NCBI GenBank assembly: GCA_030704615.1
Contig: CM060734.1
Location: forward strand, 26,040,001 to 26,104,000
Direction of reading: 5' to 3'
DNA length: 64,000 bases
Origin: Takakia lepidozioides
Lineage: Eukaryota > Plantae > Bryophyta
The translations under genes were made by a program, and so were the position numbers. Under the pieces are notes generated by a model, which saw only the letters and a list, made by a program, of their open reading frames with translations, had not been told where the DNA came from and ran no database searches. Shown one piece after another: positions 4,291 through 36,141 of this stretch (position 1 is the first letter of the stretch; each line of letters opens with the position of its first letter).

Positions 4291-5887
4291 TACATGAACA
4301 AACCCCGCCCTCCCACCCTGTTTTATCGTGATTGATCGGGTGATGTCAATTCATGGGAAGCTATGACAAGAATGGAAATGTTAGATGGTGCCCTGTTTTG
4401 GGCTGTTTATGTCTTTAATTGACAATGACCCTAGTGGGTCTTGTCCATGTCTTGACATGACATGAATATCTTCCCTCTTTGGTTTGTGTTTTTTTGTGAG
4501 TAGCACAAAAGAGAGGGAGAGAGAGGGAGAGAGAGAGAGAGATCAGGAAACCAAAAAAAAAAAAAAAAGGTGTGGGGGAGAGTGACTGAGCAGCAGCTGC
4601 TTAGTCACTCTCCCCCCCCCACCTTTTTTTATTTACGTTGTTGCCCCCTCTCTCCCTCTCCCTCTATAACTCTTTGGATTTCATCTAGCCTTAACCTTTT
4701 GAGGTTATTTAGTTTTTCATCCCTGCCTTTTTCATCCAAATCTGGATGATCTTATTTTATTATTGGATGATGAAACTTAATATACAGAAAGCTAGAGTTA
4801 CCATCTATTTTTTTCATCTAAACTGGATGATCTACATAAATAATGGTTATCTATTATAAAATCCAAGAGAATAATAAAACTACCATCATAAATGATGGCA
4901 ATTATTAAACCTAAGCCTATACCATAACCCTAAAAGATACATTTCTATGGGATGTCATCCAGTGACAAAATGCCTCTCTTGGTATAATGTGATATTTCAT
5001 CCATCCTGGATAAAATCGGGAAGTTTTGCCCTAAGCAGGCCGACACACTTCACAGCACTGAACTCGTGCTTCAGTGAACCTTGATGATGCGCCGTATAAA
5101 CCTGCTCCCCTGCTGCTACATGGTACTCGTGATTGCTGGCTCTCGGGATGCGCATTGGTGGTTAAACAGATTCTTCTATGGCAGACGACAAAGCCGTGAT
5201 TGCTCTGATCAGGAACTCATGGTTCTTTATTTTGCAGCGGCGCTTTTACTCCTTGTTGGGAAGTACTCTATCCCTATTTATCTACAGATTACATGTTGCT
5301 CTCTCTTTGTGTATGAGCCATTCTCTATCTGTGAACGCTTCTACTCTGATTGCGTTCTGATGGAGACGATCTGTTGGACGCCATGGCGCAGGGCATACCA
5401 CAAACACTCAAGGTTTTTTGAGTTTACCATTGCTTGAATTGTGATCTGTACTTGCTTTAGAATTCAACACTGACATGGATAGCAACTGTGAAGACCTGCC
5501 ATTTACCTGTTGCATCCTCACTAACACACATCGCTATGTGGTGGTTTTTGGGACGGGCACAGGTGAGGGTCTTCACTTGTCTTACCAAACCTGCAATCTG
5601 GTTTTTGAAATGAGTTTAAAATGGATTCTTTAGATGAGATCAGGAAACAAAAAAAAAAAAAAAAAAGGTGGGGAGGGGGGGTAACTGAGCAGCTGGGGGA
5701 GAGAGGGAAGATACTCATGTCATGTCAAGACATGTACAAGACCCTACTAGGGTCATTGTCAATTAAGGACATAAACAGCCCAAAACATGGCACCATCTAA
5801 CACCTCTAGTCTTGTCATGGCTTCCCAATTGACATCACCCAATCATTCATGATAAAACAGGGTGGGAGGGTGGGGTTTGTTCATGTA
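4291..5887. mobile_element. ~1.6-kb segment bounded by ~190-bp inverted repeats (putative TIR element, or two inverted MITE copies)
   Basis: 4291-4478 is the near reverse complement of 5702-5887 (tacatgaacaaacccc...gggtttgttcatgta). Internal hairpin at ~4562-4630. Confidence 0.55.
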
Positions 5888-6236
5888 CAGCTAAAGATTG
5901 CTGCAATCATGCAAAAGGCAATGCATCTTGGGTATATGAACCAGCTTGCAATTTTTACAGATTCAAGACATGCATTCAAGCAAGTGTCTTGGGAATGACA
6001 GTTAGCAGGTGGCCTAGTCTGTGTTTAAGACAGTCAATAGGGGGATTAGTTGCCGGATTGAAGATAGCTTTGTGGGCTCTTTTGGGGTGCTCGTGTAGTA
6101 ATTTGCTAAAGGAAGCAACAATTTTTTTGTGGTTGGCAGTGGCTTTGCATTTGGTGATCGTATAGGCCGCTTTTTTGGCGTCTCGGCCCAGTTTGGATAG
6201 GGAGGCGGCCCACTGGGGGATAGAGGCAGGGTCACT

Positions 6237-7462
6237 CGGGGCCGAGTCTGATGAGAGGGAAAAATAGGCTGCAATAGGTTGAAGAAGAAGGTGCCCTCAC
6301 CACCACCCAACCAGCTAACTTACAGAATTCAACATGCATTCAGGGCTGAGTCTGATGAGAGGGAAAAACAAACAACAATAGGTCAAAGAAGAACGTGCCC
6401 TCACCACCACCCAACCACCTAAGTTTCAGAAAATTCAACATGCATTCAGGGCAGTCTGATGAGAGGGCAAAACAGGCTGCAATAGGTTGAAGAAGAAGGT
6501 ACCCTCACCACCACCCAACCAGCTAACTTACAGAATTCAACATGCATTCAGGGCCGAGTATGATGAGAGGGCAAAACAGGCTGCAATAGGTTGAAGAAGA
6601 AGGTGCCCTCACCACCACCCAATCAGCTAACTTACATAATTCAACATGCATTCAGGGCTGAGTCTGATGAGAGGGAAAAACAGGCAACAATAGGTGAAAG
6701 AAGAACGTGCCCTCACCACCACCCAACCACCTAGGTTTCAGAAAATTCAACATGCATTCAGGGCCGAGTCTGATGAGAGGCCAAAATAGGCAATAGTAGG
6801 TCAAAGAAGAAGGTGCCCTCATCACCACCCAACCAGCTAACTTTTGAATTCATCATGCATTCAGGGCCGAGTCTGTAAGAGGGTAAAACAAGCTGCAATA
6901 GGTTGAAGAAGAAGGTGCCCTCACCACCACCCAACCAGCTAACTTACAGAATCCAACATGCATTCAGGGCGAAGTCTGATGAGAGGGCAAAACAGGCTGC
7001 AATAGGTTGAAGAAGAAGTTGCCCTCACCACCACCCAACCAGCTAACTTATATAATTCAACATGCATTCAAGGCTGAGTCTGATGAGGGGGAAAAACAGG
7101 CAACAATACATCAAAGAAGAACGTGCCCTCACGACCACCCAACGAGCTAACTTACAAAATTCAACATGCATTCAGGGCGGAGTCTGATGAGAGGGCAAAA
7201 CAGGCTGCAATAGGTTGAAGAAGAAGGTGCCCTCACCACCACCCAACCAGCTAACTTAAAGAATTCAACATGCATTCAGCGCTGAGTCTGATGAGAGGGA
7301 AAAACAGGCAACAAAAGGTCAAAGAATAACATGCCCTCACCACCACCCAACTAGCAGACTTACATAATTCAACATGCATTTAGGGCTGAGTCTGATGAGA
7401 GGGAGAAACAGGCAACAATAGGTCAAAGAAGAAGGTGCCCTCACCACCACCCAACCAGCTAA
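6237..7462. repeat. Tandem array of ~12 x 104-bp units
   Basis: Unit ggccgagtctgatgagagggcaaaacaggctgcaataggttgaagaagaaggtgccctcaccaccacccaaccagctaacttacagaattcaacatgcattcag. Ten units span 6341-7381. Confidence 0.97.
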
Positions 7463-8976
7463 AACCTTGGAGGTTTGCCAATGTGCGCCGGTACGTCCAG
7501 ACTTGGAAGCTGAAACACTTCCGCCAAGTACTTCTCCGTCAATAGAATCTGTGTGTCACAGACATTTGTGCTTCGAGTGCTGGTGTTGTAATTCTCCAAG
7601 AACTCCCTGCACAGCTCGTCATGCTTAAGGTTCTAGTCCAGCATGGTGATGAAGTACCGCAGGCCAAGACTATCCAACGTCTCATGTGTCTCTGTGTCCT
7701 ACTCGATTTTCCGCAACGCCGGGCTGATTTTGAAATTCACTTGCGCATAAGAACTTGGTGTCTTCCGCTTGGTGCCTCCCATTTCCCTTAGTTTTGCTGT
7801 TGCTGTAAGGAATTGGAGCACCAATTCCTGTATCAAGAGCAGTATGAAGCACACTGGAAGTTGTGTAGACGGCAATTTCCAGTTTGCGGAAGAGAAAGTT
7901 CTGGGTTTAAGTAGGGGTTCTCCTCTGTAGGCTTCTTCTCTAACTTCTCTCGAGGTTCTCGTGGAGGTAATTCTGTCCTGCTGTCCGCCTAGGTTTAAAG
8001 CGCAATTAGCTTTAATTGTTGGGCTCGGGCTTACCAAGAAGCATTTAGCTTCTGGTAACGGTTTTGAGTAAACCTCATCCCTTTTCTGGATGTGCCTGAT
8101 TTTCTTCGTTGGTGTTTTCTTCGTGGTTTGTCTTGGATTGAACTGATGGTTGTTGATGAGTGTCCGATTTCGGTCAGTTTACGTTCATCCATCTTGGATG
8201 TGTTCATCCATTTTGGTATGTGGTCTGTTTTTAGATGGGCGGCGTGTGCGCAGTACTTGCAGCTTGGTTTAATGGCTTTGCCCTTATCATCCGCCGTCTT
8301 TTGGCAATCCGTTGGATTGCGCCGTCGTTCTTCCTCCGTGTTATGATCGATGGTTAGTGGTGTATGATTACCACGGTTGGTGGGGTAATCTGGAGCGTAC
8401 ATCTTGGAGTTTAACACAAGCAGTGACTCGTTGGCTGCTTCGTATTCGTTCACGGTTCTGTAGGGCATATATGCTGGCCAGGGTTCACCATACGGTATAC
8501 GGGGTGGTAATGATGTCCTCCAAATGAATGGTGGTCTAGCCGTAGTGGTGCCTTGAACTCGTATTGCCACCTGTCTTAGTACATGCCGATTCACCGTGTC
8601 GTGATGAATGTAGTATGCACTGGCGGTTTCACGCTCCTCATCTGCGGTTTGGTCTTCCTCGTTGGCGTATAAGTCATGTATAAGGGCTCTGTCATGTATC
8701 CATTTGTAGCCTTTCAACTTGTTAATATTAATTCGTCCCGCGAATTCTTGTTCCAAGGTCTGCGAATCAACAGTTCCATTGTCATCTACCCTTTTGATTT
8801 GAAATGGTCCCATCCATGACATTTTCAATTTTCCTCCCAGTTTGATCTTCTTGATTTTTGGTAACCATAAAACAATTTCCCCGTCTTGGAACGATTTTTC
8901 TTTCCCTTCGGATATTCTTTTTCTTCATTGTTCTTGAATTCGTGCCATGTTATCTACGGCGTCTGCCCGAACTTGT
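7463..8976 (-). mobile_element. Degenerate Ty3/Gypsy fragment: integrase C-terminus plus downstream extra coding sequence
   Basis: FQDGEIVLW...KLKMSWMGPFQIKRVDDNGTV...ININKLKGY is a GPY/F integrase tail. A long read-through and an ORF remnant containing ELCREFLENY follow. Confidence 0.65.
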
Positions 8977-11332
8977 TGTGCACCTAAGCATCGTGCCACA
9001 ACATACATTGCTGTCCAACCACACTTCATAGCATATAGTCCTAGAAAGCCACGCCACAATCGCCCCCCTAGTTGATGATTAGGTCCCTCTAACACCGGAT
9101 AGCTGGCAGGTATCCACCCCAATAAGATCATCGCTTGGTCTTCAATCGCACAAGTCCCAACACCTGAAGTCGATAGATCAAGAGGCCGGGTGCAAACGTA
9201 GCCCCTCTGAGCTATGTCCGTGACAGTTACGACCTCCACTGCGACCTCTGCCTCCTCTACCTCTCTGGACTACATTGCCTCGTCCTCGGTCACCATTGTT
9301 CCCTTGGAACTGGCCTGGCCATAGCTCAGGATGCAAGTCATATCAATGGGCCTCTTCATGCCCATACTTGCCACAATGCCCACACTGTAGTTGTGTAGGT
9401 TGTGCCTGTGCCGGGCCTTTGCCTCTCTCCGGGCAATCTCTCTTAACATGGGGCCCCCCACAATCCCAACATGTCACACCCGACTGTTGTTGGCCTGAGA
9501 ATGAAAGAAGTGACCTCTGCAATTGAGATCCTCTCTGTCCTTCCCTTGGCTTCGCCTAAGCCCCCTTGTTGCCTTGAGCACGTTGGGGTAGTGGTTGTTG
9601 TTGGCTAGGAGCCCCACTTCGTTGTGTCTCCTTACAAACCCCACCATGACCACTCGCTCCTCCCCCATATTGAGCTCTATCCGCTCTACCAGCAAACACA
9701 CGTTTGCTAAGGTGGGTTGGGCCACTTGTAGGAGAGTTGCATCCCGCACCCTTCTCCTCAGCTCTTTGTCCAATATCCCATACCAGAATTGGAATGCTTG
9801 AGCTTCCGTAACCCCTTGGGTTACATTTATCAATCGCCTCATGCGCGTGTAAGCCTCCCTCAAACTCTTAGTAGGCTTGCGCTGGAACTCTTGCAAGCTC
9901 CGTAATTTCTCCGTCCTTATCCCTTGGTAGTTTCTCCTCAACTCCTCGAAGAACTCCACAACTGGGTTAAAGGCAGGCACGGGTGCTGGTGCTGCAGCAG
10001 GAGCTTGAGTGGATTTCCCAGCTCCATCTTTACTTGTCCCACTACTAGTGCTTGCAGTTGGGGATGTTGGTGTAGCTGTTGGTGTCACCGCCCTTGTGCC
10101 TATAGTGATGGAGACATAGTCAGGCGACCAATATTGTCGCCACTCCTCAATCTCCACCTCATTTCCCCGCCTAAACTCATGGTAGTCATCCATAGGCGGC
10201 CCCTCAAGGTGCTGAAACAGCCCCTTCCACGCCATAAAAGGCATAAACAGTTGTGGATTGCGCATCTGCTGCAAATCACACCAACTATCAAATTCCTGTA
10301 TGAAATCATCAAGCTCGATGGTGCCCACAGCTCCAGAGTACCGACGTGGCCCCTTAGTAGCTCCTTACACAACAATGGCACGGAAATGGCTTGCACCCTC
10401 GGCGAGTATCCTCCTGACTCCGAGTCTGAACCTTCCTCAGAAGACACTGAAGGTGAAGGTGGCCTAAACCCCACACCTTGTCTTGTATACCCACTAGTAT
10501 CGCTGGTGCTCGTACCGCCACTCTCCTCAGCAACTGGTGGTACCTCCGTGATGAAAACTCACACTCAAACCGACTATCAACTTGTCTCTAATCCCCCTTT
10601 CCACAAGGTAACCAGGTAGAGAACCTGTTGCGGCTTATAGTTTGGAATACTATGTTCATAACCTGCACCTGCATCCACCGCAGGCACTCCTATGGTCTGC
10701 TGGTCATCAACCCAACCTCACTATAAGAGAAACAATGATGGTCTGCTGTTCATCACCCCAGCCTCACCACCGACAACACGCTCTAGGATTGGTTGGCCAC
10801 AATATTTCCGGCACAACCACCTATAAAATTAAGCGCCCAAACCAAACTAACATGGTGCACAGTCAAGCATACATGTGTGGGAGGAGGATCCAAACACAGG
10901 AAAACTCAAACAACAACACCTCCCACACCTTAAATCAATCGATCTCCTTGCGGCTCCAATAAACCTGCAAGATGGCCAAGTCTCTATCCAAACTAGCTCT
11001 GCCTCCACTTACGGAAAAGCTTTGGCCTACAAGAATGATGGAAGACTATAGCTAAAGCAATATCTAACCCCAGAATGCTATCATCACATTACTCCCCCTA
11101 TCTTCACACTCACTCTTGCTCGAGCGCAATAGATAAGACTATCCTTAAAGAACCTCTCAAATAACTCTGAGAAGCCCTCAAATTATTGTCATGAACTTCT
11201 GAAATCTGCCCTCAATCAGCCCCTAACATAGACCCACCGAGGTTCAAGAAGTTCGCAAACTTGGACTCCAAACAGTCCACCAAAAGGCCCTAGGCCACCA
11301 CATTCTCCCCACTGAGTGTAAGGCACATGACA
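8977..11332 (-). mobile_element. Family A Gypsy copy A1, internally deleted (putative 5' LTR 11332-10583, gag remnant 10549-9270, short PPT/LTR-like end)
   Basis: Gag is near-identical to copies A2 and A3 (ELDDFIQEFDSWCDLQQMRNPQLF). Putative LTR termini TGTCA...GACA. agggggg tract followed by TG...CA at 9070-8977. No pol and no TSD found. Confidence 0.8.
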
Positions 11333-12605
11333 CAAACATTGCCTTTGTGAGGAGCTCACTTCTTGCCTTGATATAAACCAAGTTGTTTGGACTATGGATG
11401 GGATAGATTGAATGAAAGAGACAGCTCTTTATATCATGGTTGTAACTTGGAGTGATGGCCCTCTCACTTTGGTGGTAGATTCCTCTAACCTGTCCATCTA
11501 GTCAGTCTGTTGAAAGACAAATTGAAAACGAAACTTATTAATACTTTTGGCAAAGCAGCCAAAAAAGAGAGGCAGAGAGGACCTCGCAAACTTGAAGTTG
11601 CACCTTGACAGAGCCCTTACAGCAGCTATGATGTTGCACACATGCTGTTTTTCGCTGTGATCCAGCTTGTACTTCACATTCGCGACATTCCCACTCTTCT
11701 TCAAATCTGCATCTTGAAGAGTTCCTGCATATAAAAATCCTTGGAAATGGTTGTTTCAAGTTGCTGCCATAAATGACATGCCAATCTATACCTCTTGGAA
11801 TCTATGGATGTAGTGTGAAGGTTGGATTGTACATGCATGCATTGACCCAAACATGCTACTTGCTTTGGATTTGCTACTTAACAACTGCATCAGAGGCCTA
11901 GAAACAAAGCAACAATTTCATTGGAGACTCTCACTGTGACTTGTACACGGGAAAGATGCAAAACGGTGGGAACAAGCTCTAATTTGTAATCAAATCTTTT
12001 CATTGAAATGTGGGCCTTGGCAAATGCAAGGATATTACAGGGTTCCCAAGTTTTGCCCACAAGAACAATGTCCTCAAGCCTCTGGCTCCCTTTCCAGACC
12101 TAAAACACAAAACACACTAACACAACCCCCCTCCATTTTTCCTCAGACAATAGGGTCTCAAAGCCAAATCTTTGCAGGCTCCAATGAAGCAGGATACCCA
12201 CAGTCCACAGTCCCATCATAAAAATAAAATGGTGTGGGAACATAAGGGGAACAGAAGCAGCCTCTCTCAGATGGGTTGATGGGAACGCGTTCTTCATGGC
12301 GCCGTTATATGGGAGGAACCATTAGTGCAGGGCACTACTCTTGTTTCTGGCTTCGTGTTTTGGGAGTCCAGCCTCCGGCCTCCTGTCTTGCAGAGAGAGG
12401 GTTTGAGAGAGAATAGCGTTGAGGGGGATACAGTGATGCATCAGGTGTGTTGTGGAGTGTATGCAAGAGAGTATCTGGTGACAGATAGAGAGCAGGGTCT
12501 TGTGATCGACTGTTGAAAAAGGTGGGTGGCAAGTTTCATGAGCGGGTGAATTAGACCAAGCAAGGGGAGAAGAAAGAGAGAGAGGGGGGGGGGGGGGGGG
12601 GGAAG

Positions 12606-15600
12606 ATGGATAGTGCAGGGAACTCGCTAACATCAGGACCTGAGGGGCGGAAGAGGAGGGTGGCCTACTTCTACGATCCTGAAGTGGGTAACTATTACTA
12701 TGGGCAGGGACACCCCATGAAGCCTCACCGCATACGGATGGCGCACTCTCTGCTGGTGCACTATGGAGTGCATCAGAAGATGGAGGTTCTGCGGCCTTAC
12801 CCTGCTCGGGATCGGGACCTCTGTCGCTTTCATGCTGATGATTATGTAGCCTTTTTACGGGCTGTAACTCCTGAGACACAGCACGAGCAGCTGCGAGCGC
12901 TGAAGCGCTTCAACGTTGGAGAAGATTGTCCCGTGTTTGATGGTCTCTACTCTTTCTGCCAGACGTATGCGGGGGGTTCGGTTGGGGGCGCCGTGAAGCT
13001 CAACCATGGGCACTCGGATATAGCTATCAACTGGGCTGGTGGGCTTCACCACGCCAAGAAGTGTGAGGCATCAGGGTTTTGCTATGTCAATGACATTGTG
13101 CTGGCTATCTTGGAGCTTCTCAAGTACCACCCGGTATGTATCCTGGCTGCGTGGTTATTTATGTCTCTCTTTCTCCTTCAGTTCTTCCAGAAATTCTCCT
13201 CTTATTCTGCTTCTAGTATTCTTCAGTTGCATTATCAATCAACTCAGAACTGTGTATTTGTGCTTAGGGGGGAGAGAGTGTGCACCCTGAATTTTTTCTT
13301 CCTCTCTCAGAAGCCAGTTAGATGTACTATGTCTTTTAGAAAAAGAACCCTTCCCTCTGGAATCCCTGCCAGCCCAGAGTGCAAATTAAATACAGATTGG
13401 GAGTTATACCATCAATACCTCTACTTCCAGCACAGTCTCACAACCTGCAAGAAATTTTCTGAGAGATGAACAAGCTATACAGTTTTAATACAAGCCAAGG
13501 TTGGAGCTATTCAGTGATGGCAGTGTCCATAGCAGAGGGTAATAGGGATGAGCGACTTCAGTTTAAAAGAGGGCAGTAATTGGAGGTTCGCCTTTGCTGG
13601 CCTCCTATTTCTCTATGCTATCTCAGGTGTGGACCAATTCTGTTCCATATTTGACATTTGAAGGAATATAAGAATTTTATGATGGAAGGGGTACAAAGAT
13701 GGATTTGGAGGGATGCCAGAACATATTGCAAATAATGAGTTATAATACTACTTTGTTTTTCCTCTGAAAGTACACGTGTGATAATTTTGAATGGTTGTAT
13801 TGGAGTTAAACTGTGAGAAATAACATGTATGTGTGCATGCAGCGGGTTCTCTACATTGACATTGACATACACCATGGTGATGGTGTTGAGGAGGCTTTCT
13901 ATACGACTGACCGGGTGATGACTGTCTCATTCCACAAGTTTGGCGACTATTTTCCTGGGACTGGGGACCTCAGGGACATTGGCCATGGAAAGGGCAAGTA
14001 CTACTCCCTGAATGTGCCATTGAACGATGGGATCGATGATGAGAGCTACCAATCACTCTTCAGACCCCTCATCTCCAAGGTTATGGAGGTGTTCCAACCA
14101 GGGGCTGTAGTTTTGCAATGCGGTGCTGACTCGCTTTCTGGAGACCGGCTTGGTTGTTTCAATCTCTCTGTGAAAGGGCATGCGGAGTGTGTGCGCTTCA
14201 TGCGATCCTTTAATTGCCCACTGCTGCTCGTAGGAGGTGGAGGCTACACCATTCGCAATGTGGCCCGGTGCTGGTGCTATGAGGTTTGCTTTAGTGAATG
14301 TCTGGGGCGGCAGGATAGAGAGCCCCTTTTTATATATATGATGTGACTTTGATCATTAGATACTTCTTTCCTAATTTATGTGACTCAAAAGGTTCGAGGT
14401 TGTTCTCTACCTCTACTTTTATAGTTAGGTAGTTCTTGAGGCCTACACCCCACCCCAGATGCCTACTGTTACAAAGCCCAAAATGTACTCCTCTTCAGTA
14501 CAGTTAAAGTGAGTGCCTCAAGCAAAGCTCCTACCTTGTATCTGCGTTATTGCTAAATTGGACCTCCTCTGTTGGCATTATCTCTGGCCATTTGTGATCA
14601 AATTATATTCTTGCCATGGGCTTGTGTCATGGTGAGGTCACCTGCCTCCATGGTAGTGGGTGGATCCAGGTATGGTATGAGTCAGCTGTTTTACATACAA
14701 TGAATGCAGTTGCTATCCTCGTCCACAGTCTGGAATGCTAAACATGGCAGCAGGCATTCTTGCAACTCTCTTTCTCCCATGCTATCCCTTACAAAGAAAA
14801 GCCTCATTGAAGGATTTCTGCTGTCCAGGATAGCATTGAGAGTCAATACCTTGAAAATAAGGGCTCTTAACCATCAGTTTTGTGATGTGGGCAGACTGGG
14901 GTGGCTGTGGGAGTGGAGCTTGAAGACAAGATGCCGTACAATGAGTACTATGAGTACTTTGGTCCTGATTATACTCTCCATGTCACTCCCAGCAACATGG
15001 AAAACCAGAATTCTCGTGGGTATCTTGATTCCATCAGGTGCACCCTCTATTCAATAATTTTCATGTTAGTGTCTAGAATGGTGATAAGAAATATTAGTGA
15101 CAAGTGTTGAGTTCAGTGGTGGCTTGTGTGTTGGGGTTCAGAGGTGCCTGCAGCCAAGTGGCCCCTAGTTGAAGGCAAGGGGGGAGTGATGAGGCTGAAT
15201 TTACAAACGAGATGTTCCAGCTTGTGAGCATCTGTGACTGTTCAGGAATTGGTCTAATTTCTGCTTGTTGTGAGCAGGGAGAGGCTCCTGGAGAACCTGT
15301 CCAAATTGCAGCATGTGCCAAGTGTGCCTTTCACTGAGCGACCCCCGGACACAGAGCTTCCTGAAGATGTAAGGGTCATGCCCTTTCAGAGTCAAACTAG
15401 TCCAATCCAAGGATGAAATAGCTTCGATAGAGTGTCTCTTGTATGTCAGAGTTTGAATCAATCGGCCTCAATGCAGGAGGATGAGGAGATGGAGGTTCGG
15501 GGAAAGGGGCGCGTGTGGGATGGTGAACTCTCTGACTCTGACTCTGAGGAGGGTGAGCACCGACGCCGCCACAATGATGTGAGCGCTAGCGAGGCTGCTT

Positions 15601-18047
15601 TTCCAAGGTCCCACATTTACCCTCTGTACCCTTTCTGTTTAGTTGGTTCCATGTGAGAAAGACGATTAGAGTCCCATAAGAGAACTTGCCAACGGCAGGG
15701 GATGCATCAAGACCGAGGATTCACTCCTCTCATGGAACAACTGCAGTCCTGCGTTTTGCATCTAGAGAAATTGTAGCATTGGAGCATTTGTGAGAGGGAT
15801 ACTAGCACACTTAAGCATGTTCAGGCATGTGAGTGATACTCTTTTCACTAGCACTTAACGTGAGCATAGTGCTGTTGGGTAGCGCTAAGGCAGTTGCAAC
15901 TGCTAGATTGTCGCCCTATGTTTTATCTGCCTCTTTTTCTTGTGGATAATGTCTGTGCTTGTGAGTATGTATCCCTGGAGGATCGCTACACTTTGGTTGA
16001 AAGACAGCAAAAAGATCTTAGCAGTTTTCATCCTTCTATTGCCTTTGAAAAGAACGTCCTTTCCTTGTGAGTGTGTTATACAACAAAAGATGAGGCTAAG
16101 CTACAGTTGGGTGTGGTGGTTGCAGGAGAGGGCCCCAGCTGACTCCAGTGAAGGTGAAGCAGGAGGAAGAGGCTGTGGAAGCTGCATCTGTGGTCAGGAC
16201 TCTTGAACCATTCAGAAGACTTGCATTAATTCTCTTAAACTCTTTCTTGGCAATTGCACCAGGATCAGCACAGGGACTGGAATGTCAACTATTCAATGAG
16301 CAGTAGAGGTAATATGTTTAACTCCATATGTTGGTTCGTGTGCTCCTCAGGATGAGGAAAGTGAATGCAAGGATGAGGTGGCAAAGGTTGCAGAGGCCCC
16401 ACAAGACATGAAAGAAGAGGTAAGGAAAAATTTGCTTACTTTGTCATCCAGCTGTATGACCAAGAATATACCTGAATGAGTAAATATTCTCAGAAGTCAA
16501 CTGGATTTTGTGGAATTCTTTCAATTATTTTTTTCCGAGTGAGCACTTTTAAGTAAATGTATGTTGTGTTATGTGACCTCCACATGTTAGCTGGAGGGTT
16601 TGTTATTTTCTTTTGGTGAGCCAAGCATTGTTCAATGACTTCAAGTAAACCAAGTCCACTGTAATCCATAATTAGTGTACGCTGATGTTAATATAAGCTT
16701 CTGTGGTTAGGTCATTCAAGATCTTACTGAAATACTGGCATAGAGATCACACAGTAGGAAATGTGTGTGTGTGTGTGAGAGAGAGAGATAGAATGTACTC
16801 ATAAGACGTTGTTTGGCGTAGCCTTGCGGCCATTGACCCCGCGCCCAGTTTGAGCGGAACACAAAGGGACAGAACCTACCTCTGTCAGGGGCTGACTTCG
16901 GTAGTAAGACTTACCTTGATATTGAACATTGATCCGGGTTTCCCAGATATCCTCTAGAAATCCCTTCACACAAGCATCAATCTGCTGTGTGGTTTGCCCA
17001 ATAACCTTTTTTTTCTTCTGGGTGCAGCACCGGGACTTCCCGGGACGTCACCCATCCCAGTACTATTCTGTCCCGAAGGCGCTTAATTTCAGAGTTCTGA
17101 TGGGATCTGGTGTAGTAGCCTTGGTATGACCGCACCACGAGAGAGAGATAGAAAGAGAGCGTGGCTCCCAAAGGGCTTCTCAGTTTGTTGCCACCCATGT
17201 GTTCTGCGCTTTCTTGACTATGCATCTTAACTCTGCTTTTGTTCTGGATGCACAGGCTAGTGAGATGGAGGTAGAGCAAGTTGTCAAGGTGGAGGTTGGG
17301 GAGACCACGACAGATACAGACATGAGAGATGCTCCTGGCGCAACCCCTACATCAGCTGCCATGTCAACAGTAACCTCCTCCACATCATTGAGAGAAAGTA
17401 ACTCTTCTACAGCTGTCATCACCCCAATGCCCCTCCTTTCACCCTCACAGACCATGATCACAGTGACCCTTCCAAAGCCAGCTACACAACATAGCTGGCC
17501 CCCACCTGCAGAGAGTCGAAGGCCCATGGATCGGGAAGCACCTGCTTCCAGCCCAGTACATTCGAATGCCACTAGTTCACCATCCACGGGGCCACCTAGC
17601 AGCTCAGGGTTGATTCAAGGGTCATCATTAGCAGGGTTAGCATCGTCTGCCACTTGGTCCTCCTCTGGAGTTGTTGGATCAGTGGCAGCAGGGAACCGCC
17701 CGGTGTTTACCCTGTCATCATCTCTCTATGGCCCGCCATCAGGTGGGCCTTTAGCAATGGGAAGAGCAGGCTCTGCAATACTGGCTCCAGCAACTGCTGG
17801 TGCAAGTGCATCTGCTGCTCCTGGAATCTTACCACGGCCAAGTGTGGTTCCCAATTTGCCTTCTGGGCGGCCAGGACCCTTAGTGTTTCCTGCTCGACCT
17901 GGATTGCCTTCGGCACCACGTTTTGCTATATCTGTTAGTCCAGTAAGTAACTCCGGAGATGCTCCCCAACCAGCTGTTGTAGGTCAAGCTAATGCCGATT
18001 TTTCAAACCACAATGTAACCACGCAAGGGGCACCCCGAACTCCCTGA
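12606..18047 (+). CDS. HDA19: Class I (RPD3) histone deacetylase, HDA19-like. Predicted exons 12606-13133, 13843-14283, 14895-15037, 15278-15368, 15477-15607, 16126-16192, 16351-16419, 17256-18047 (~753 aa)
   Basis: N-terminus [39 protein letters not shown]. Catalytic motifs [22 protein letters not shown] and GGGGY intact. All seven introns are GT-AG and keep the frame. Exons 6-8 are less certain. Confidence 0.93.
16794..17138 (-). mobile_element. 5S rRNA-headed retroposon (SINE3-like or 5S/LINE chimera) in HDAC intron 7
   Basis: Perfect 15-bp direct repeat gagagagagatagaa at 16779-16793 and 17139-17153. 119-nt 5S head followed by a ~225-nt body. Confidence 0.85.
17020..17138 (-). rRNA. Full-length 5S rRNA-derived sequence (dispersed copy, head of the retroposon)
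   Basis: GTGGTGCGGTCATACCAAGGCTACTACACCAGATCCCATCAGAACTCTGAAATTAAGCG...AGTACTGGGATGGGTGAC...GTGCTGCACCC. A- and C-box-like motifs present. No downstream T-run terminator. Confidence 0.93.
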
Positions 18048-19629
18048 CTTGGGGTGGGGAAAGAAAATATTCACTCTTGAGAGAAAATCCTTGGGTTTCT
18101 CAACTTGGTTTCCGGCTTTCGGGCCAGTTTTATGTTTGTGAACAGTGGGGAGAGGTAAGATGAAGCAGTGTGTATCATTGGAAGTTCAAAACTTGCCACA
18201 GTGATTAGCAACCAGTCAGCTCAGCTGCTTTATTGGTTAGTCAAACATGCATGTAAACCTAATGTGATTTGCAGAAACCAATGTGGAAGATTGGTCAATT
18301 GAAGGAGGTAGAGAGCCCTTGCAGGTCCAACATTTACAGGTCATAGAGGAAACCTTGGCGTACAGAAAATTCCTTCATTGACATAAAGATGAAGCGCAGC
18401 TTGCATGTGGTGATATTGCATCCGGTGATATTGTTTGATGTTCATCCTCCGAAAATGACCCCACCACAGGAAGCTCTTATTAGAGAGGTCGGGACTGATT
18501 CGGAAACTGGTAGGGACAGTGGGATGCCCGATCTGATCTACTGTCGAGTGATGACAAAATTGTCGAGGGTGACAAGATCCATTCAACAGCTTTGGCTGGC
18601 GGGCCGAATCTGTCAAGTCTGTGTTCGACCATTCTCCCGGTCCTCTCGTCTGCCCTGAATTCAAGACCCTAGTCAACACAAATTTTGCCTCGACACCGGT
18701 TCTTGGATAACAAGGACTTCCAGAATACCTACCAGCTGATCTCACAGGAACTAGGCCAGGTGCTACACTTTGAATGACGATGGAATTGTGTTGCCACTAG
18801 TGAGAGACGATGCCTCCTGTTCCTCTGGGAGCGCTTCGGAGCTTTAATTCGCATCCACTACTTTTGAAAGTACAAAAGAGAATGAAGAACTAGGCGTGCC
18901 CAAGGATTGCTCGGAGCTCAACCTGGCAGCATCTACCCCAGGTAGGCGGTGGACACGGAGAGAGAGAGAGAGAGAGAGACTTACGGACTACATCAGATTT
19001 CATCCATCTTCTACTTCCTTATGGATGAAACATGGACGAGATTCTGCATCCAACTGCAGCACAGGAATCTCGTTGGAACGAGTCGTGACTGTGACCGGAT
19101 GGGGGCAAGTGGAGGATAGGGCTTATCACATCCATGATCGCATATCACCCCCTTGATACACCATATCCGTGCACTGCCAGTGGTTACACGTTTGCATGTC
19201 ATCCATCTCCCTCGATGATTCATCCATCCATACAAAAAGGAGACGGGCACGGTAGATTAGCATTTTCCTCCAGTTATTTTTTTTCTGTGTTTTTAAGGAA
19301 AAGGGGACAGAGGCCCTTGTAAATCAGGTTAAAAAAACACGGCCAGGCGGGCGTACAAGAGGAAAAAATAACCTCCAGAGGGGTGCCATAGAGGCTGTCA
19401 CTGCTTCGTGTCCAAAGCAAGAGATAAGAAACAGAGGATCAGAACTGAATAGATCCTATCAGCAGCTGCCTGAAGCTACACTAATTAGCTCCGAGATTAT
19501 AGTAAGAAGGCAAAACAAATTTATCACAGAGGGATATCTGTTCATCAAGTTCATCCATCCATTTGATTTCCGGATTAATGAAACATAATGGGGCCAAATC
19601 TGTGAGCCTGTCCAAATTAGGCTTGGGTC

Positions 19630-20226
19630 AAGTGTTGGTCTGGTATCACGTTTAGGACATACCAGCCTATCGGTACGAGTACTGCAGGTCTCACAAAATA
19701 TTCATACCAATTTGGTATATATAATGGCAGATGCATTTTATCTAGATACTAGTGAGTACTGAATCAGCCTTTATGGCTCTTGTAAGGTTATTTTTTCCTT
19801 ACCATCTTGCTTCCTCCCCTGTTCATTTTTTAAAACAAAAATACTGAATATCATTATCACAATACCAGCTGGTCTCAGGTATCAACACTGGTATCATTCA
19901 GATACTAAATTTAATTAAATTCTATCAATTATCAAGTATCCAGCGAGAAAAATATTGTAAATTCCAGTATATATAATATACCTAAAATATATTTATAAAT
20001 ATTTGTACAATATTAATATTGAAAATAGAATATTCATATCAGAGCAAATGAAGAAGACTGTGGGAGAGTACTGGTATGGCGGCTGGTATATAAAAGTCTA
20101 TACCAGCCTGGTATGGTATCTCCCTGAATATAGCATGTTTACACATTAGACTAGAGTGGTCTTTACATACTAGTGCATATACCAGCGCTTGTACCAATCT
20201 TTTGCCTATATACCATACCAACACTG
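19630..20226. mobile_element. hAT-type MITE, older copy in opposite orientation to 20550-21020
   Basis: Termini aagtgttgg...ccaacactg with many ataccag/ctggtat subterminal motifs. TSD not recognisable. Confidence 0.65.
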
Positions 20227-20549: not shown

Positions 20550-21020
20550 CAGTGTTGGTCTGGCAACCCGAGTATCAACGTTGGTATCAACCCTGGTATC
20601 AGGGACCAGACCAGCTGGTCTAAGTTCTACAATACCATGTCATATACCAGACCAGGCTGGTATCCGTTTTCTCATACCAGCCACAATACCAGTACCCCCC
20701 CCTGTCTTCCTCATTTACTCTGGTATGTGTACTATACTAGTTATGTGTACATACATGCACTTATGTATATTTACTTTATGTTTATTGTATTTATTTTCAC
20801 TTGATATTTGACAAACTTGTAATTCAAATGGCTTTGGAATGATACCAGAATTGATATCTCATACCAGCTGGTATTGTGGTCATGATACTCATACTCATAC
20901 CAGTATCTGGGAAAAAATACATCCACCATTATATAGACCAGACTGGTATGAAAGTTTTGTGATGGGGCTGGTACGGGGACCATTCTGGTATGTCCTAAAC
21001 CTGATAGCAAACCAACACTG
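20550..21020. mobile_element. hAT-type MITE, 471 bp
   Basis: TIR cagtgttgg/ccaacactg, perfect 8-bp TSD gtgtccac (20542-20549, 21021-21028), repeated ataccag motifs. Confidence 0.9.
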
Positions 21021-23170
21021 GTGTCCACCTTCCAAATATAAGGTAGTAGCCCTTAGGGGTGAAGTGACACCATAAGTAATATTATTTGCTTCAGCAAGAG
21101 TCTTCCTTCCTTCTGCTAGCATACCCTATCTACACTAAAATATCATATGGTTTTTATTTCTATGTCAAGATTCATAACCATATACATGTTACAAGGCCTA
21201 TATGCGCTTAGTATTGGGCTCACAAGAGAGAAGACTTCGGCCAAAGCCAACTAATCTAGTCACTTCACATTTCAGCTAATGCCTCATTTCGGACGTGGGG
21301 GGCCCAACACTTATTTGTGCTCACGCCAACGTCGCTCACAGGTCACGTGCTCACGCGATACCAAGTTCCCTCCTGATGAGCAATCACTCTCCATGTTTCC
21401 ACTTTCTAATCATAATAATAATAGCCATTAACCCTTACTTTCCCAAGCGACCCGAATCGGGTCGCTCTGAATTTCCACTTCCACCTAATTTCATCGGATC
21501 TCCTCTGATGAAGCTTTTATGACAAAAGGACTTGTCTCCAATATGATGCAAAATGAAAAATGAAAAAAAAAAACAAAAAAACAAAAGCTACCACCTACAG
21601 GAAATATCTAAGATAACTATGTCAGATTTTGGCAGTGTAAAGGGCTTGTTGACTGCTGACGTGGCAGGTAAACAAGCCCAAATTATAAAATTAATAAAGT
21701 TAGTAAAATTTTAAAAAATATATCTAAAACTCACTTCACCTTGTGGTGTGTGAGCATTACATACACACATCCACCGCTGGGTTTTAGAAATGTCGTAGAA
21801 AAAAAAGTACTTCATTTGGAGGCACATTTTCCCTGTCAATTTTTAGACTTTAACCCCTATGTAATTACATACAAAGCAACCATAGTTAAGAAAATCAGTT
21901 AGACCTGCAATTTAGAGGGGGTGTAGCCATTCCACTATGGATTTGGAAATGGTGGGTCTTGGGGCAAGCAAAATTGGATAAAGCCAGGTATGATTTGGTC
22001 AAACCTATTTTTTCCCCACTTCTCCTTTGAGACCTGAAATTTGAGGTTCAGGCCAATGTTATAATCTCACAATTCCCACGGTGGAATTGGCTCATTTTTT
22101 GATATGTTGTGCATAAATGAGCTGGGCCCACTTCTATACGGCTGGAATCTATGGATGATTTTTGATAGGTTTCTGCGGGCAATTTACTGCAGCTGGGTAT
22201 CCAAAATTGTTAAAAACTCCTAAAAGGGCTTGGGAAATTAAGGGTTAACATACTACCTAAGTACAAATTGGAAACACACACAAGTGTCATGTCAGCCTAG
22301 ATTCATCCATGAGAATGAATCATATAAGTTCATGCATATCCCTCATTTCTACTAGCATACCAGAAATTTAAAATATTTCATCGTTTCTTTAAGAATATAA
22401 TAATAATTTTCTTAAAGACTAAATGGCATTTTCAAATGAACTAGCCTATTAGATCAACCGACCATGAGGACGATGGCTCTCGGCGCTCCGCGTTTCGCGG
22501 TGAGAGAGGATCCCAATGGTTGCTTCGTCTCTATGGCGAGGTTTCTCCCAGGCTGCTGGACGCTAGATGTTGTCCTTGCCTGGATTCTCAAGTGGTTTGC
22601 GTATAGCATAGAGTTAGAATGTTTTTTTCCTGTTCTCATATAACTGGTTTATGTGTGTTTTTCGCGCTTCTGCGTGATTTTTCGCTTCTCCTAATATCCA
22701 GAACGGTTCAGCCCAACTTTCCCTGTTTCATTCATCATTTCGTGCGTGCTATCGCCGCCTTCGTCTAATTACTTCGATCTGCCCCCCTCTCAGCAGCCGG
22801 CTATCATTTATGGAGAGACAAGCTATCCCTGTCGCTTTGATTCAAAGTGGTGCCACCTTTGTGCACTGGGTTCATTCCAGCTCAAGCTAGACGAAGTATC
22901 TCTCTCGTCTAGTTTATCGAGCTTCACTCCTCCCTTTCACTGCCCACTGCTCCTGTCTTCGTGTTCTAATTCTTGAATTCTGCTTCAGTTTCTAGACAAC
23001 GTGCATTTCTCCGTCACTATCAGCGATTTCTTCTCCAATCTCATCTCGGATCGAAGTTTGTTTTTTAGCTTCCCTGTTAATTCGACCCCCTCCGGCTTCC
23101 CCTCCGGTGCTTCCTGTTCTGGCTCTAACTACATCTGAGTGCTGAGTCTCTCTCCCTCTACCCGTCCCTC

Positions 23171-25515
23171 TTGCCTTCCTTCCAATGGGTCCCAGCTACA
23201 TGCCCCACCAGTGATCCAAATCCTCAGCTTGGCCCCGTCGCCACCAAGGTCAGCATAGCTCGCGGCTTCCTGGTGGGTCCCAGCCATCCTCAAGCTTCGG
23301 ATTCTTCATGGCCCCACCAGGCAAGATCCGCAGGAGCTCGGCAAACTTATAGGCCAAAGCAGCTCCCTCATCCCATGGTTCCGCCCCCTCCCCACGTCCT
23401 TCCCAAGGGGGTAGGGTCCTCATCCGTTCCGGTGCAATTCATCTCTACGCCAGAGCTGGAGGAAGTGGAGTTCAGCCCTGACCACCTCGAAGAGCAAGTA
23501 TCTATGAACAAGGATCTCCCCCTCGTCAAGTTGGACATCCCGGATTTGCACAGCAGAATCACAGGTATGGAAGAATCTGGCATCTTGCTACATTTCCCTG
23601 GTAGGAAGGTGTTGCGTTCTTACGTAAGAGATTGGGTGACTCGTTACTTCGGGGGGCACGGCGACCTTACGCATCACTTCTGCATAGCCAAAGGGCGTGG
23701 TTTCTTTTCTATCATGTTTGAATCTCTTGAAGCTGTTGATAAGGCCCTGCAATTCAATCCGCATCAAAGGGGATTTAACGTGAATATTTTCCCGTGGTCC
23801 TCCAAGCTCGGAAACAAAAACGACAAGTTGTGGGGTCCTAGAATTGTTTCCATTCCGTTTATACCGGATCAGTACCTGGTCAACCTGCCAGACATAGCCA
23901 ATCATTTTGGCTCTTACCTGGGCTGTCTAGGGGTCTTTGATCCCCTCATGAATACTAATACCCTTCGGAAAATCCCGGCGTGGAAATCTGCCACCATTGC
24001 TACCAAGATGAATGAAAACGGGTGCCCCAAAATGGTGCTCATGATGCCTTATGAGGCGGTTCTGCCAGATTATGTGCGTCTGCCAATTGACTTGGAAGGG
24101 AACTACTACACGATTAGGCTGATAGAGGATATCTCTTATTCAGCCTGCTTCGGCTGTGGCAAGCAAGGTCACATCAAAATTAACTGCCCCCTTTCCAAAA
24201 GGAAAAGATCCCCTAGTGTGTTGCAGAATGTCCACCCCTCCACCAATGATCAATTCAATTCGATCTCCTCAACCCCTACCCCGCCTCCCCCTCCCCCTGT
24301 CCCTCCATTTCCCTCCCTCTCGCTTCTGTCTCCTCCCCTTTCTCTATCATCAGATCTGCTCCAGTTTAGCCCGGTTCACATTGCAAAAAAACAAAAAGAT
24401 CCTACGGACCCAATGCATCTTGAGGCCAACTTCTCAATGCCGGTCCCTAATGGTGAGGAGATGCCCCCCCGCCCTGTCACTGTGCATGCAACTTGCCATG
24501 GGAGTCCTTCTCCTCCGGTTCAAGACACTGCAGGGTGTGATCCCCCCAAGCAGCTGGTGCCTTCAGCAATAGCAGGTAACCACGTGGTGGCAGTAGTGCT
24601 AAAGTCAATTAAATCCTTTCCAGACCTGGTGCTGCCGGGTTGCTCGATCGTATCTACCAATGATGCCCCCAAAGCCTCTTGCGTCACGCCCAATTATCTT
24701 CAAGATAGGTCCCCCGGCCTCAATCCTCATCACATCACAGGCACGATCTGGAGTCCCTTTGGATAACCAATCAGGATGTCTTGAGCTTTGTTGAAAAGAG
24801 TCCCCCCAACAGCAGCCCACAATGTATGCTTATGGCCAAAATCCAAGACTCCAATCATATGCCGTGCTATCTCATTGCTCCCTCCTCAGTCATTACCTGG
24901 GGGGCGTATGTTGAAGAGCACCCGTATTTGAACTGCAAGCCAAATACCAATGTGTTGGCTCTGATGGAGGATGCAGACATCTACCACACTCCCCCTAGTA
25001 AGTCCTGGTGGATCAGAGAGGACTGCTTGAACAGGCCATGGGGAAAGCAGCCGGCGCATATCAGGGCAAAAGATCTGCTTTCAAATGCTTTTTTCCTTCT
25101 TTCAAGGTTGATTGACCAGCGCATGGAGGAGGCTAACCACAGGGACGACCTGCAAAGAACAAGGGATCACCTCAGGGGGTTCCGTCCAAACCCCTCTGGG
25201 TCCTCTTCCTCAAGTGCTTCAATTGGTGTGCAGCCCCTGGCTGATGATGGAGTTGAGGTTGCTCCCGGGAACAATTACGCTCTGGCTCAACCCGGCGACT
25301 TCCTCGTCCAGCCTGCAGAGATTTCACACAGTGCAGCCTCTCATCTGCCCTCCATCCAGGAGGTCCAAGCTACAATCAGCTCGTTTTCTATCCCAGCAAC
25401 CACCCCGACCCCCCTTTCCCTCCTGCTGCTCTGCTGGAAATCAGCTCTCCACGCACTGAGGTACTTGCCCAGTCCCTTCCTTGTTTTCTGTTCCAGCTTG
25501 ACTCCACGGATATGA
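23171..25515 (+). pseudogene. L1 ORF1 (DUF4283/RRM-like region plus CCHC knuckle, Pro/Ser-rich tail)
   Basis: KGRGFFSIMFES...VNIFPWS and CFGCGKQGHIKINC. Position upstream of ORF2. Confidence 0.8.
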
Positions 25516-25950
25516 AACGTTGTTGGGTGCTTTGCTTGCGTCCTGATGCCTCTGCTAGGAAATCAGCAAGGAAAACATTGCCATCCATCAGTCTGCCACC
25601 AAAGACAGTCCTCTCGGACCTGCCTCTCCTCTCCGAACGGAATGAATCTCACATCATCACTTCCCAAAACCTTTTTTTTTTCCAGAACCTCCCCACAAAA
25701 CCCAGTATCCTTTGCAGGCCCCCCCATCCCCATCAAATCCAAACTCTCCCACTCTCTATTCCCCAGCCAACCCCTTCCTCTCTCCTAATGATTCGAATAC
25801 AACTTAGGCCCCTCTCCCCTCCCAGCCCTTACATCTGGGTGAACGGTCTCCTCCCTTACGACAAAAGGGTCAAATTCAATTGTCTCTCCCCGGGGCCATC
25901 AAATGAGATTGACCATCTCCGCCTTGCTTTTCATCCTCATGTTGATTGAC

Positions 25951-28900
25951 ATGGTCTCCTGGAACATCAGAGGTCTAGGGTCTGAACATGCTTCCGCGAA
26001 GCATGCCTCTGTTAAAGCAGCCCCGGCCCCCTACCTAGTCAAAAACGCAATCTGCTTCTTGCAAGAACACAAGCTGGACGCTTGGAAAATATCCTCTCTC
26101 ACTGATTACCTCTGGCCTCGTGCCAACTCTCTCTGGCAACCAACCTCCCTGGGGTCCAGAGACGGTACATCCATCCTCTTATCCCCATCCCTCTACCCCT
26201 TTCTAGTCTCAGAAAGCTCCTGGGTTCCAGGCAGGATACAATTTTGCTCCATTGACCTCCCTTCCAAAGGGGGCAGGCTAGGCCTTGTAAACATCTACGC
26301 GCCAAACTCCCCGGCTAAGAGGGCTCAAACTTGGGAGTCAATCGAATTAAACATGATCGCTGAGCAGGCTGTGGATTTCTGGATCCTGGCGGGAGACTTC
26401 AATATGGTGGAGTCTCCAGCCGACAGGAGAGGCCTCGGGTCTTTCAACCCAGACATTACAGAGACCCAACACTGGCACAACCTGACCTTAAATCACAACC
26501 TCGTTGAAGTAGAAGCAATTCACCAGGGTTCTCTCTCTCCTGCAGCCCCCATCTTCACATGGTCAAATAATAGGGGCCTCCTGGATCTCCAGATGGCGAG
26601 GCTAGATAGATTTTATGCCTCCATGGATTGCATCCAATGGGCCCAGAGACTCCCCCAACTGCCTATCCAACCTGGGTTTGACCACGCTATGATCCAGGCC
26701 TCTTTCACAGTCCCAAACACTCTCCCAAGGGCCTCTATAAGATGAATGCTTCCCTTCTTTCAATCCCTGCTTTTACCCAGGGCTTGCAGACAGCATGGTC
26801 TCAAGCTGGCAATGGCTCCCAAAACCCTACAGAAAGGTTCCTCTCGAAACTAAAGGCTGTGGGGGTGGCGAGCCAGCTTTTAAGTAGAGATATAGCAGCC
26901 TCTAGGAAAAAGAAAGTTAGAGCCCTTACCAAGTGCCTTTCAGTCTGTCAAAAGAAAATGGAGTCACCTCGGTGCGACGAAGAAACCTTCAATACCTACC
27001 TGGAAGCCAAGCATAATCTTCAAAACTTCCACAACCTGCAAGAGCAAAAACTCAAACTTTCAGCAGGGATCAACTGGTCTTCCAAGGGAGAAAAAATGAC
27101 CAGGTATTTCTTCGCTAAAACCAAACTCAGAAAAGCATCCCAATCCATATCTGAACTCACCGATCTCTCCTCTGGTGCATCCTTCTTAGACCCTAAACCC
27201 ATGGCCCGCTTCGCCGCAAACCACTTTCAAGCCCTCTTCCGCAGTGATGTCCCTGTTGACTCAACAGAGCACAAAGCCTGCCTGGCCAATACACCCACCC
27301 TGGTCTCCCTTGCTGCTGCCGTTTCCCTGGAAGGACCCCTCTCTAAGGACAAACTGTCAGAGGCTTTGTCTAAACTTAAAGAGGGGAAGTGCCTTGGCTT
27401 GGACGGTATCCCAGTGGAGTTCTACAGGAAACTATGGCCCCACATCTTGGAGGACTTTCTAGCAATGTCCAACCACATCTTCCTCTCAAACCACATGCCT
27501 GCTGCAATGTCACAGGGAGTCATTACTCTTCTTTTAAAAAAAAGAGATAGAACTAGCCTGACCAACTACAGACCTATTACCCTTCTGAATGTAGCATACA
27601 AAATCATAGCAAAGGGGCTTGCACTCAGTCTTCAACCTCTTTTGCCTTCCATCATCAGACCAAGCCAATCAGGCTTCATTAAATGAAGGTACATTATGGA
27701 TAACCTGCTGCTAGCCCAAGAGTTACCCCACTACGCTCTCAAAACCCAATAGGCTATAGCCCTCCTTCTCCTCGACTTCAGAAAGGCCTTCGATAGGGTG
27801 GAGTGGCCCTTTCTCTTAGATACCCTTGCCAAGATTGGTCTACCCCCCAGCTTTTGCCAATGGGTACGCATTCTCCTGTCAGGATCAACTAGTAGAGTTA
27901 TTGTTAATGGTTCGGTCTCCAAGCCTTTCTCGCTTCAGTGTTCTGTCAGACAGGGCTGCCCTCTAGCTCCCTTTCTCTTTATCATTGCAGTGGACACCTT
28001 GGGTTACATGCTGCAAGCAAATCAGTGAATCACAAGACTCAAACTCACTAGCTACATCACTAATCAGCCTATACAGATCAGGGAGTCTATGTATGTAGAT
28101 GACACTTTCCTTATGCTTCAAGCAAACCCAATCAATCTAGACAGTGCCTCTACCACTTTATCTTCCTTCTGTGCGGCCTTGGGCTTCAAAGTTAATTGGA
28201 ACAAAACCTGCGCCCTTCTGGTGGGTGATACTTCCCTATCCCGCCTAGGGCCTTCACCCTCCCGGGGAACTAATATAGGTCTTTCTTGGCTGCAACCGGG
28301 TCAGACGACCACCCTGTTAGGCTATACCTTCGGGGTTGACCTCTCAGATGAGCAACGCTTTGCCCCTATCCTTTCAAAGATAAAAAAAAATCTCTCTTTC
28401 TGGGGCTCAACATTCCTATCAATCACAGGACGGGCATTGATAGCAAATCAGGTGGTATCCACTGGCATTTGGTTCTATGCGGCATCCTGGCGCCCCTCCC
28501 GCAGCCAAGTCCGTGAATATAAAGTCTTGCTTTGCAACTTCATCTGGGGAGCTCGCGGGGCAGGTCAAAAGGTTCGTCCACAGGTCTCGTGGAAACAGAT
28601 CTATCAACCAAAGAAAATGGGGGGCTTGGGAGTTCTCGACCCAGAAACCCAGATCACCGCCCTTCTTGGGAAGTGGATCCCCAGATTCTTGGGCCCGGAA
28701 GGAGGTTCGTGGAAGTTTCTAGTGGTGGGGAACCTCATGTTGGCAAGTCCCCTGAAAACCTCCAGCTCCGCTGGATCACACAAGGTTTTAGGCACAAATC
28801 AGTTGGCTCACCTCTCTGGTCTATAATCTGGAAGGCTTGGGCTTCAATCAGACCATTTCTCAAAAAAAAAAAAACCCGAATCTTATGAGGAAACTCTACG

Positions 28901-35600: not shown

Positions 35601-36141
35601 TTGGGCAGAGCTGCTATTGCAGGCTTGGGCCTCACGGAGGCGGATATGGAGCCTTGTCCTTTCCATATACAGACGTCTCTGGGAGGATCGGAGCAGGCTC
35701 GGGGCATGACACGGCGTGAGTTGGCTATCAGACTACGGCAGATGGCTCAGTGATGCGAGCCAAGGCCATTGTGACAGACGCAGTCTCATACGATGTCCTG
35801 GTTGGTGGGGCAGTGTTGTACCCCATGGGCTTCACCCTGGATTTTTGGGATGAGTCAGCTTCCTATAGGCCTGCATGGCAGTCAGGGGAGGGCCGGCATG
35901 TGCAGCTCCTTGTGATGTTCATAGGAGGAGTTGCGGTTTCCCAGCGAGGCAAGATGCCGACACTAGCAGCATTCACAGCGGCAGTGAGTTGGCCTAGAGA
36001 ATTGCTTGAGGGCAATGCTCTCATCAGAGGATGTATCACCTCCGGAGAGCAGGATGACATGTATGGTATGGCGGAGTTGCTACCATGGTTGCTCAGACTC
36101 CATTGTGGGGCACGAGCAAGGATTTGCAGCGGATGCTGATC

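Follow-up and report, generated by a model that had tools for sequence, protein, structure and literature searches.

In a 64-kb stretch of the Takakia lepidozioides genome (hereafter the window), a 5S rRNA sequence is joined to what is likely the 3' end of a LINE-like family, and we are fairly confident that a LINE reverse transcriptase produced the resulting unit as a chimeric retrocopy, either once or in a few copies. The unit is 345 bp long, is enclosed by a single 15-bp target site duplication (TSD) and sits in an intron; its LINE-like part, the body, is abundant without a 5S head and varies among copies in the manner of coding sequence. The unit is real and probably a unique chimeric retrocopy; it is unlikely to represent a first family of 5S-derived SINEs in plants, a class of which no plant member is known according to a 2024 review (PMC10946416). 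Our searches of open-access text listed neither a plant 5S SINE nor a plant 5S/LINE chimera.

As seen, the unit is a single, probably inactive intron insertion. As a one-off, it would be a clean plant example of the presumed birth step of SINEs, in which an RNA with a Pol III promoter is captured on a LINE tail, here in sense orientation, at full length and in one event. It also marks an abundant LINE that seems to be linked to a TC-rich target and for which the collections searched contain no protein relative. An amplified junction would make the unit the first plant SINE3.

Structure of the unit and its insertion site

The 5S model of Rfam (RF00001) matched positions 17019-17137 on the reverse strand with 90.6 bits and over its full length (model positions 1-120 of 120), and this was the sole Rfam match in the whole window. 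The sense strand of the unit contains no TTTT, the first one being located 363 nt downstream, at 16430. A reading made previously from the letters alone (the sequence-only reading) had described a full-length 5S head, a perfect TSD, a (GT)n(GA)n microsatellite as the target, a sense strand free of TTTT and a body open in one frame with its stop codon 5 nt before the 3' end, all of which held in our analysis. Its body of about 225 nt is more precisely a composite of a 14-nt linker and 212 nt of repeat. The coordinates are collected in Table 1.

Table 1. The 345-bp unit, its target site and its host gene in the window
Feature	Position	Strand	Basis
TSD, 5'-side copy	17139..17153		Identical over 15 bp to 16779-16793
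5S rRNA head, full length, sense with the body	17019..17138	-	Rfam RF00001; about 4% off the majority 5S
Purine-only linker with A8, between the 5S and the LINE-like piece	17006..17018	-	Letters of the sequence
3' end, truncated 5', of a likely LINE-like family of very high abundance, 212 nt	16794..17005	-	Contig depth and synonymous variation
TSD, 3'-side copy	16779..16793		Identical over 15 bp to 17139-17153
Microsatellite (TG)8(AG)5, insertion site	16762..16787	+	Repeat pattern; (TG)8 at 16762-16777
Eight-exon host gene for a histone deacetylase of the HDA19 type	12606..18047	+	Pfam PF00850; stop-free exon model
Potential cryptic cassette exon in the antisense head, 96 nt	17028..17123	+	Sequence signals only

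The flanking repeat is exact at 15 bp and at no other length between 5 and 29, and its 15-mer occurs at these two places only in the window. Repeats of 15 bp at the same spacing were found at 83 of 62,696 window positions and the TSD is partly (GA)n; we take the repeat as a TSD because it adjoins the start of the 5S and the end of the body. The stop codon of the body is located at 16799-16801 and is not followed by a poly(A). The frame that precedes it is open over what would be the last 68 codons of a likely ORF2, an open stretch that is weak evidence by itself, with at least 68 open codons in one of three frames in 399 of 5,000 shuffled sequences. The linker is A-rich and measures 14 nt (17006-17019) if base 17019, which it has in common with the Rfam match, is included. 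Its letters match neither the 5S nor the LINE family, which carries other letters at these positions. A special stem-loop at the 3' end was not supported (z-scores of -0.04, 0.01 and 0.68 for three 3' pieces and of -1.92 for the body with the linker).

Abundance and variation of the body

We aligned the contigs of four public sequencing runs (X2, X5, X6 and X7) to positions 16500-17450 at 80% likeness. X2 and X7 are DNA runs, and X5 and X6, neither of which is on record as RNA, were judged to be RNA-like because exon 8 was covered and the unique intron flanks were not. The summed contig depth in X2, which is not equivalent to copy number and, being drawn from contigs, conveys no level, strand, starts or ends, was 0.4-2.0 million in the body, 34,000-60,000 in the 5S and 64 in the unique flank. 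The ratio of the median depths of body and 5S was 30 in both X2 and X7, 182 in X5 and 98 in X6. Since a ratio of 30 was obtained in two unrelated DNA runs, most body copies must lack a 5S head, and given this ratio they would do so even if every 5S-like sequence were counted as the head of a SINE.

The contigs themselves also lead away from the 5S. At position 16991, the loose end with the most support, 143 contigs in X2, 35 in X5, 34 in X6 and 12 in X7 left the unit and continued into sequence other than 5S; further contigs diverged upstream at 17005, and loose ends at both positions were present in all four runs. The continuations beyond 16991 had median lengths of 35-112 letters, and those of 30 letters kept the frame open when read by hand.

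For the variation within the body we used 15 of the 28 body rows listed, 13 rows at 16918-16927 being dropped for poor alignment and 48 further rows standing in the table; three of the 15 were changes private to the unit and were set aside. All seven segregating changes at 16895-17005 were synonymous in the frame given by the sequence-only reading, against a background of 0.21, while the other five frames yielded 0-4 synonymous changes out of seven. None of the five segregating changes at 16794-16894 was synonymous. The nominal p value of 1e-4 is a rough one, the split at 16895 having been picked after inspection of the data. This pattern fits master copies selected for their protein up to about codon 36, as would be the case at the end of a LINE ORF2 whose C-terminal tail is free to vary. 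Judging from the variation and the anatomy, and with no protein match, the body is likely the 3' end of a LINE-like family. The earlier proposal of a LINE-like coding tail within one retrotransposition unit is supported by the synonymous pattern and by the single TSD.

In the RNA-like runs, the LINE end had summed depths of 10,000-78,000 (X5) and 3,000-19,000 (X6), compared with 137 and 45 for exon 8, and the family may be widely present in the transcripts of these runs. One X2 contig of single-copy depth (60) contained a joint from 17130 to 16958, with the LINE placed first and the 5S following from its position 8, and there may be a second 5S/LINE contact elsewhere in the genome.

Three contig joints placed the TSD motif beside other copies of the family, one of them at a 3' end (X2) and the other two at truncated 5' ends (one in X2, the other in both X5 and X6). 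The duplication at this site was therefore likely made by the LINE machinery. The family seems to have a TTCTATC/(TC)n-type sequence either as its end or as its insertion site, and the first letters of 16779-16793 may represent either the family tail or a preferred target.

The suggestion that the partner LINE could be traced through the body peptide was not borne out. The peptide had no relative among longer proteins at E <= 1 (one candidate) and matched none of the Pfam families, and a 55-aa part of it had no match in the Atlas. The sole phmmer match among 1.84 billion proteins (P0122, E = 3e-4) was treated as a chance match, being a singleton whose score adds up over three repeats of 40 aa, each worth about 26 bits. 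A 20-nt pattern from the body occurred at three loci in metagenome contigs, matching over only 20-21 bases. When contigs of viruses and prokaryotes were scanned with the peptide, 1 of 3 and 3 of 153 stretches were obtained, and these were without exception short matches around the seed. The L1-like pieces of the window are not the partner.

Three features take the place of an alignment here: the partner lacks a poly(A), its 3' UTR is very short and its target is a microsatellite. On this basis we consider it somewhat more likely to be an RTE-X element than anything else, a Tx1-like L1 being a possible but clearly less favoured candidate. Simple repeats form the ends of RTE LINEs in plants and of RTEX LINEs in algae, and a poly(A) is the end of 224 of the 233 L1 families of flowering plants (PMC3747384, Table 3). 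RTE-X has expanded in Marchantia (bioRxiv 10.1101/827881), and (TC)n and (TTC)n serve as targets for the Tx1-type elements Kibi and Koshi (PMC4494074). We obtained no match in sequence to either of these clades. A broken L1-like LINE with a zinc-knuckle ORF1 and an endonuclease (PF03372) is located at about 23129-29600 on the forward strand of the window and is not the partner of the insertion.

Origin of the unit and alternative explanations

A single round of retrotransposition would best account for the whole unit. The LINE protein would nick a TTCTATC/(TC)n-type site and, by target priming, begin to reverse transcribe its own RNA from the 3' end. After about 212 nt the enzyme would switch templates and enter an A-tailed 5S RNA at its 3' end, unless the two RNAs had been joined beforehand; the 5S would then be copied to its first base, second-strand synthesis would duplicate the 15 bp and the copy would afterwards decay by about 4%. 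The linker is likely the A-rich tail of the 5S template, although 5S is not among the TRL substrates listed in a review of RNA tailing in plants, which are precursors of 18S and 5.8S (PMC13030794).

The enclosure of both the 5S and the body by one TSD speaks for such an event. Independent template-switch chimeras are predicted to come with many LINE copies that have a common 3' end (PMC4494074), a prediction that the many headless body copies match. Template switching to U6 has been described for L1, L2 and RTE/RTEX LINEs (PMC4476161), and 5S is present in 10.5% of 253 human chimeras (PMC11838501). Like the U6/L1 and 5S/L1 chimeras of mammals and the U6/L2 and U6/RTEX chimeras of platypus and lizard, the unit has a small RNA 5' of a truncated LINE end. 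Three of the four features of small-RNA/LINE chimeras were found here, namely joined parts, one TSD and headless LINE copies, the last being numerous in the known systems as well (PMC11838501, PMC4476161). The TSDs reported for human 5S/L1 are 7-15 bp long, compared with 15 bp here, but most human 5S/L1 chimeras carry the 5S in antisense and truncated at position 46 or 90, whereas the 5S in our unit is in sense and full length, like the U6 in U6/L1 (PMC11838501). The unit further differs from the mammalian, platypus and lizard chimeras in its plant host, its A-rich linker and a LINE without poly(A).

Some observations run against a one-off event. The 5S depth in X2 would allow for up to about 690 single-copy equivalents, a figure inflated by overlapping contigs, compared with about 35 in X7. 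Positions 17140-17171, just outside the 5S start, had a depth of 798 in X2 against 64 in the flank, an excess for which either truncated copies of the LINE or further copies with a 5S head in the same microsatellite may be responsible. Also, the unit is in sense, of full length and free of TTTT, as is typical of SINE3. Among the 32 contig pieces listed (with 8,422 further ones), none crossed the 5S/body junction. One X2 contig of single-copy depth (60) contained a joint from 17130 to 16958, with the LINE placed first and the 5S following from its position 8, and there may be a second 5S/LINE contact elsewhere in the genome.

The strongest rival, which we regard as improbable, is a small and young SINE3 family, in which a 5S/LINE chimera became a Pol III master and tens of copies were moved in trans into (TC)n by the partner LINE. 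The sequence-only reading had been headed as a candidate plant SINE3 and had offered a SINE family member or a one-off template-switch chimera; of these, the chimera is favoured over the SINE3 of the heading by a body about 30 times as deep as the 5S, by the contigs that leave the body for other sequence and by head letters that are not amplified. The unit is built like a SINE3. In zebrafish SINE3, HaSE3, Ped-1, 5S-Sauria and MEG-RS, too, the head derives from 5S and contains the region of an internal Pol III promoter, and a SINE3 has a LINE-derived 3' end, a length below 700 bp and no internal terminator, all of which apply to our unit. In Ped-1, the 5S head is combined with an RTE (BovB) tail (PMC3747384, table). 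SINEBase asks for a head of at least 60% identity over at least 60 nt, compared with a full-length match here in which 5 of 119 nt differ from the 5S contig, and for interspersed elements of less than 1 kb, compared with 345 bp, a 15-bp TSD and a location in an intron. Any heads identical to the rRNA gene would go unnoticed within the 5S depth. In X7, the contig of the 5S ends exactly at both gene ends, as would be expected of copies with different flanks, and the depth next to the 5S start in X2 exceeds that of a single copy.

Against a SINE3 family, the 5S-like depth in X7 is only about 35 times that of the flank, with a single gene-type contig contributing 48 to a depth of 53-62 in the middle bins, and there is little room for the minimum of 100 copies given by SINEBase (PMC3531059). 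The 119-nt contig concerned has a depth of 48 versus 2.3 for the flank and differs from the head in five letters. Four of the differences could be placed, at 17069, 17071, 17075 and 17087, which correspond to 5S positions 69, 67, 63 and 51. The head letter at 17075 had zero depth elsewhere in all four runs, and that at 17071 was carried by about 190 of 34,506 in X2 and by none in the other three runs. The shared diagnostic head changes that characterise a SINE3 are thus absent, and with the head letters carried by 0-0.6% of the depth at 17071 and 17075 there can be no large family with this head; contigs lose rare variants, so that what is excluded is a large family with those letters only.

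The placed changes matter for activity as well. The A box at 50-64 and the intermediate element at 67-72 of the 5S are parts of the Pol III promoter, which puts all four changes inside it. Since they fall in this region, the unit was probably dead on arrival or silenced later. In 5S-bearing elements the promoter region usually stays intact and positions 51-69 are usually conserved in SINE heads (PMC10946416), in contrast to the head described here. No TATA-like word was present in the 52 nt upstream of the unit, and no second copy of the unit was found in the window by blastn or tblastx. Compared with SINE3, there is no evidence here of amplification of head and body together and no SINE-specific body, the tail being a plain truncated LINE. 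SINE3 elements are on record only for animals and, in the case of AfuSINE, for a fungus. We accordingly give little credence to the unit as a first plant 5S SINE family, that is, as a young, low-copy SINE3 in (TC)n, derived from a 5S/LINE template switch and mobilised by an abundant LINE lacking poly(A), whose antisense head also provides host genes with an in-frame cassette exon.

It is less probable still that the unit was assembled in two steps, the template being transcribed from a 5S retropseudogene of earlier date with an A-tail or from a SINE made of 5S and an A-tail, as in the bat MEG-RS. If this were true, a simple 5S SINE would be expected to lie hidden in the genome. Such a history would suit the purine-only linker with its A8, which is foreign to both the 5S and the LINE family, the clustering of the head changes within 19 nt and the naming of plant TRL tailing substrates without 5S (PMC13030794). 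It is opposed by the head letter at 17075, which no other depth carries in any of the four runs, and by the similar divergence of head and body, each a few percent away from its majority, as would result if both had decayed since a single event.

Two adjacent insertions, a 5S rDNA spacer, the LTR of a Cassandra or other TRIM element and an assembly join are very improbable even when taken together: the TSD is partly microsatellite, in which slippage makes repeats, the unit reads TG...CA if begun at 17137 and none of the contigs listed spans it as a whole, but a single duplication encloses both parts, the body is about 30-fold deeper than the 5S and varies as coding sequence, Cassandra carries its 5S inside LTRs and TRIM TSDs measure 4-5 bp (PMC10886601), and an X2 contig at 17111-17450, of flank depth and without differences, joins the 5S start to the unique flank. 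This contig has 28 letters on the 5S side, which is less than the 31 letters required by the alignment rule, and X2 may be the sample that was assembled. Cassandra is, as here, a plant retroelement with a 5S, but our unit has no LTR pair, no primer-binding site and no short TSD, and its 5S is located at the very 5' end. The two interpretations that had been named as refuting the sequence-only reading, a body of ordinary 5S spacer or part of an LTR/TRIM, are disfavoured by the coding-type variation, the lack of an LTR pair and the 15-bp TSD.

The host gene and other features of the window

The host gene model consists of eight GT-AG exons that encode 753 amino acids without an internal stop. 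The deacetylase is 66-67% identical to those of the liverworts Riccia, Marchantia and Calypogeia, with the identity in exon 1 reaching 97% to the Riccia protein and 95% to those of Marchantia and Calypogeia, and lower values for moss, lycophyte and fern proteins. Intron 7 covers 16420-17255, and the unit is inserted in it in antisense, in agreement with the placement proposed previously. Contigs in X5 and X6 start at 17254, the exon 8 boundary.

On the forward strand, the head contains the signals of a potential cassette exon, namely an AG acceptor preceded by 16 pyrimidines in 20 nt (8-13 for the true acceptors) and a GT donor. The predicted exon is stop-free and in frame, and its inclusion would turn the 753-aa protein into one of 785 aa. 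This situation recalls the exonisation of antisense Alu elements. Among the 15 joints listed for the contigs of the four runs (with 7 further ones), none led to this segment.

Downstream of the gene, two pairs of inverted repeats (19631-19758 with 20892-21019, and 19845-20119 with 20644-20891) suggest a MITE or another DNA transposon. The window also contains several tandem arrays: a 120-bp satellite in 40 copies at 36642-41473, with a 65%-alike array at 724-1096, a 104-bp array at 6239-7462 and a GC-rich 10/51-bp array at 31436-32619. A Ty3/gypsy-like element at about 53384-60300 on the forward strand has related pieces at 9250-11105 and 32816-36141. Captures of C5 methyltransferases by Ty3/gypsy-like elements are known from algae, and this element includes a C5 DNA methyltransferase segment at about 56400-56800 (PF00145, E = 1.3e-12), placed between a protease-like region and the reverse transcriptase.
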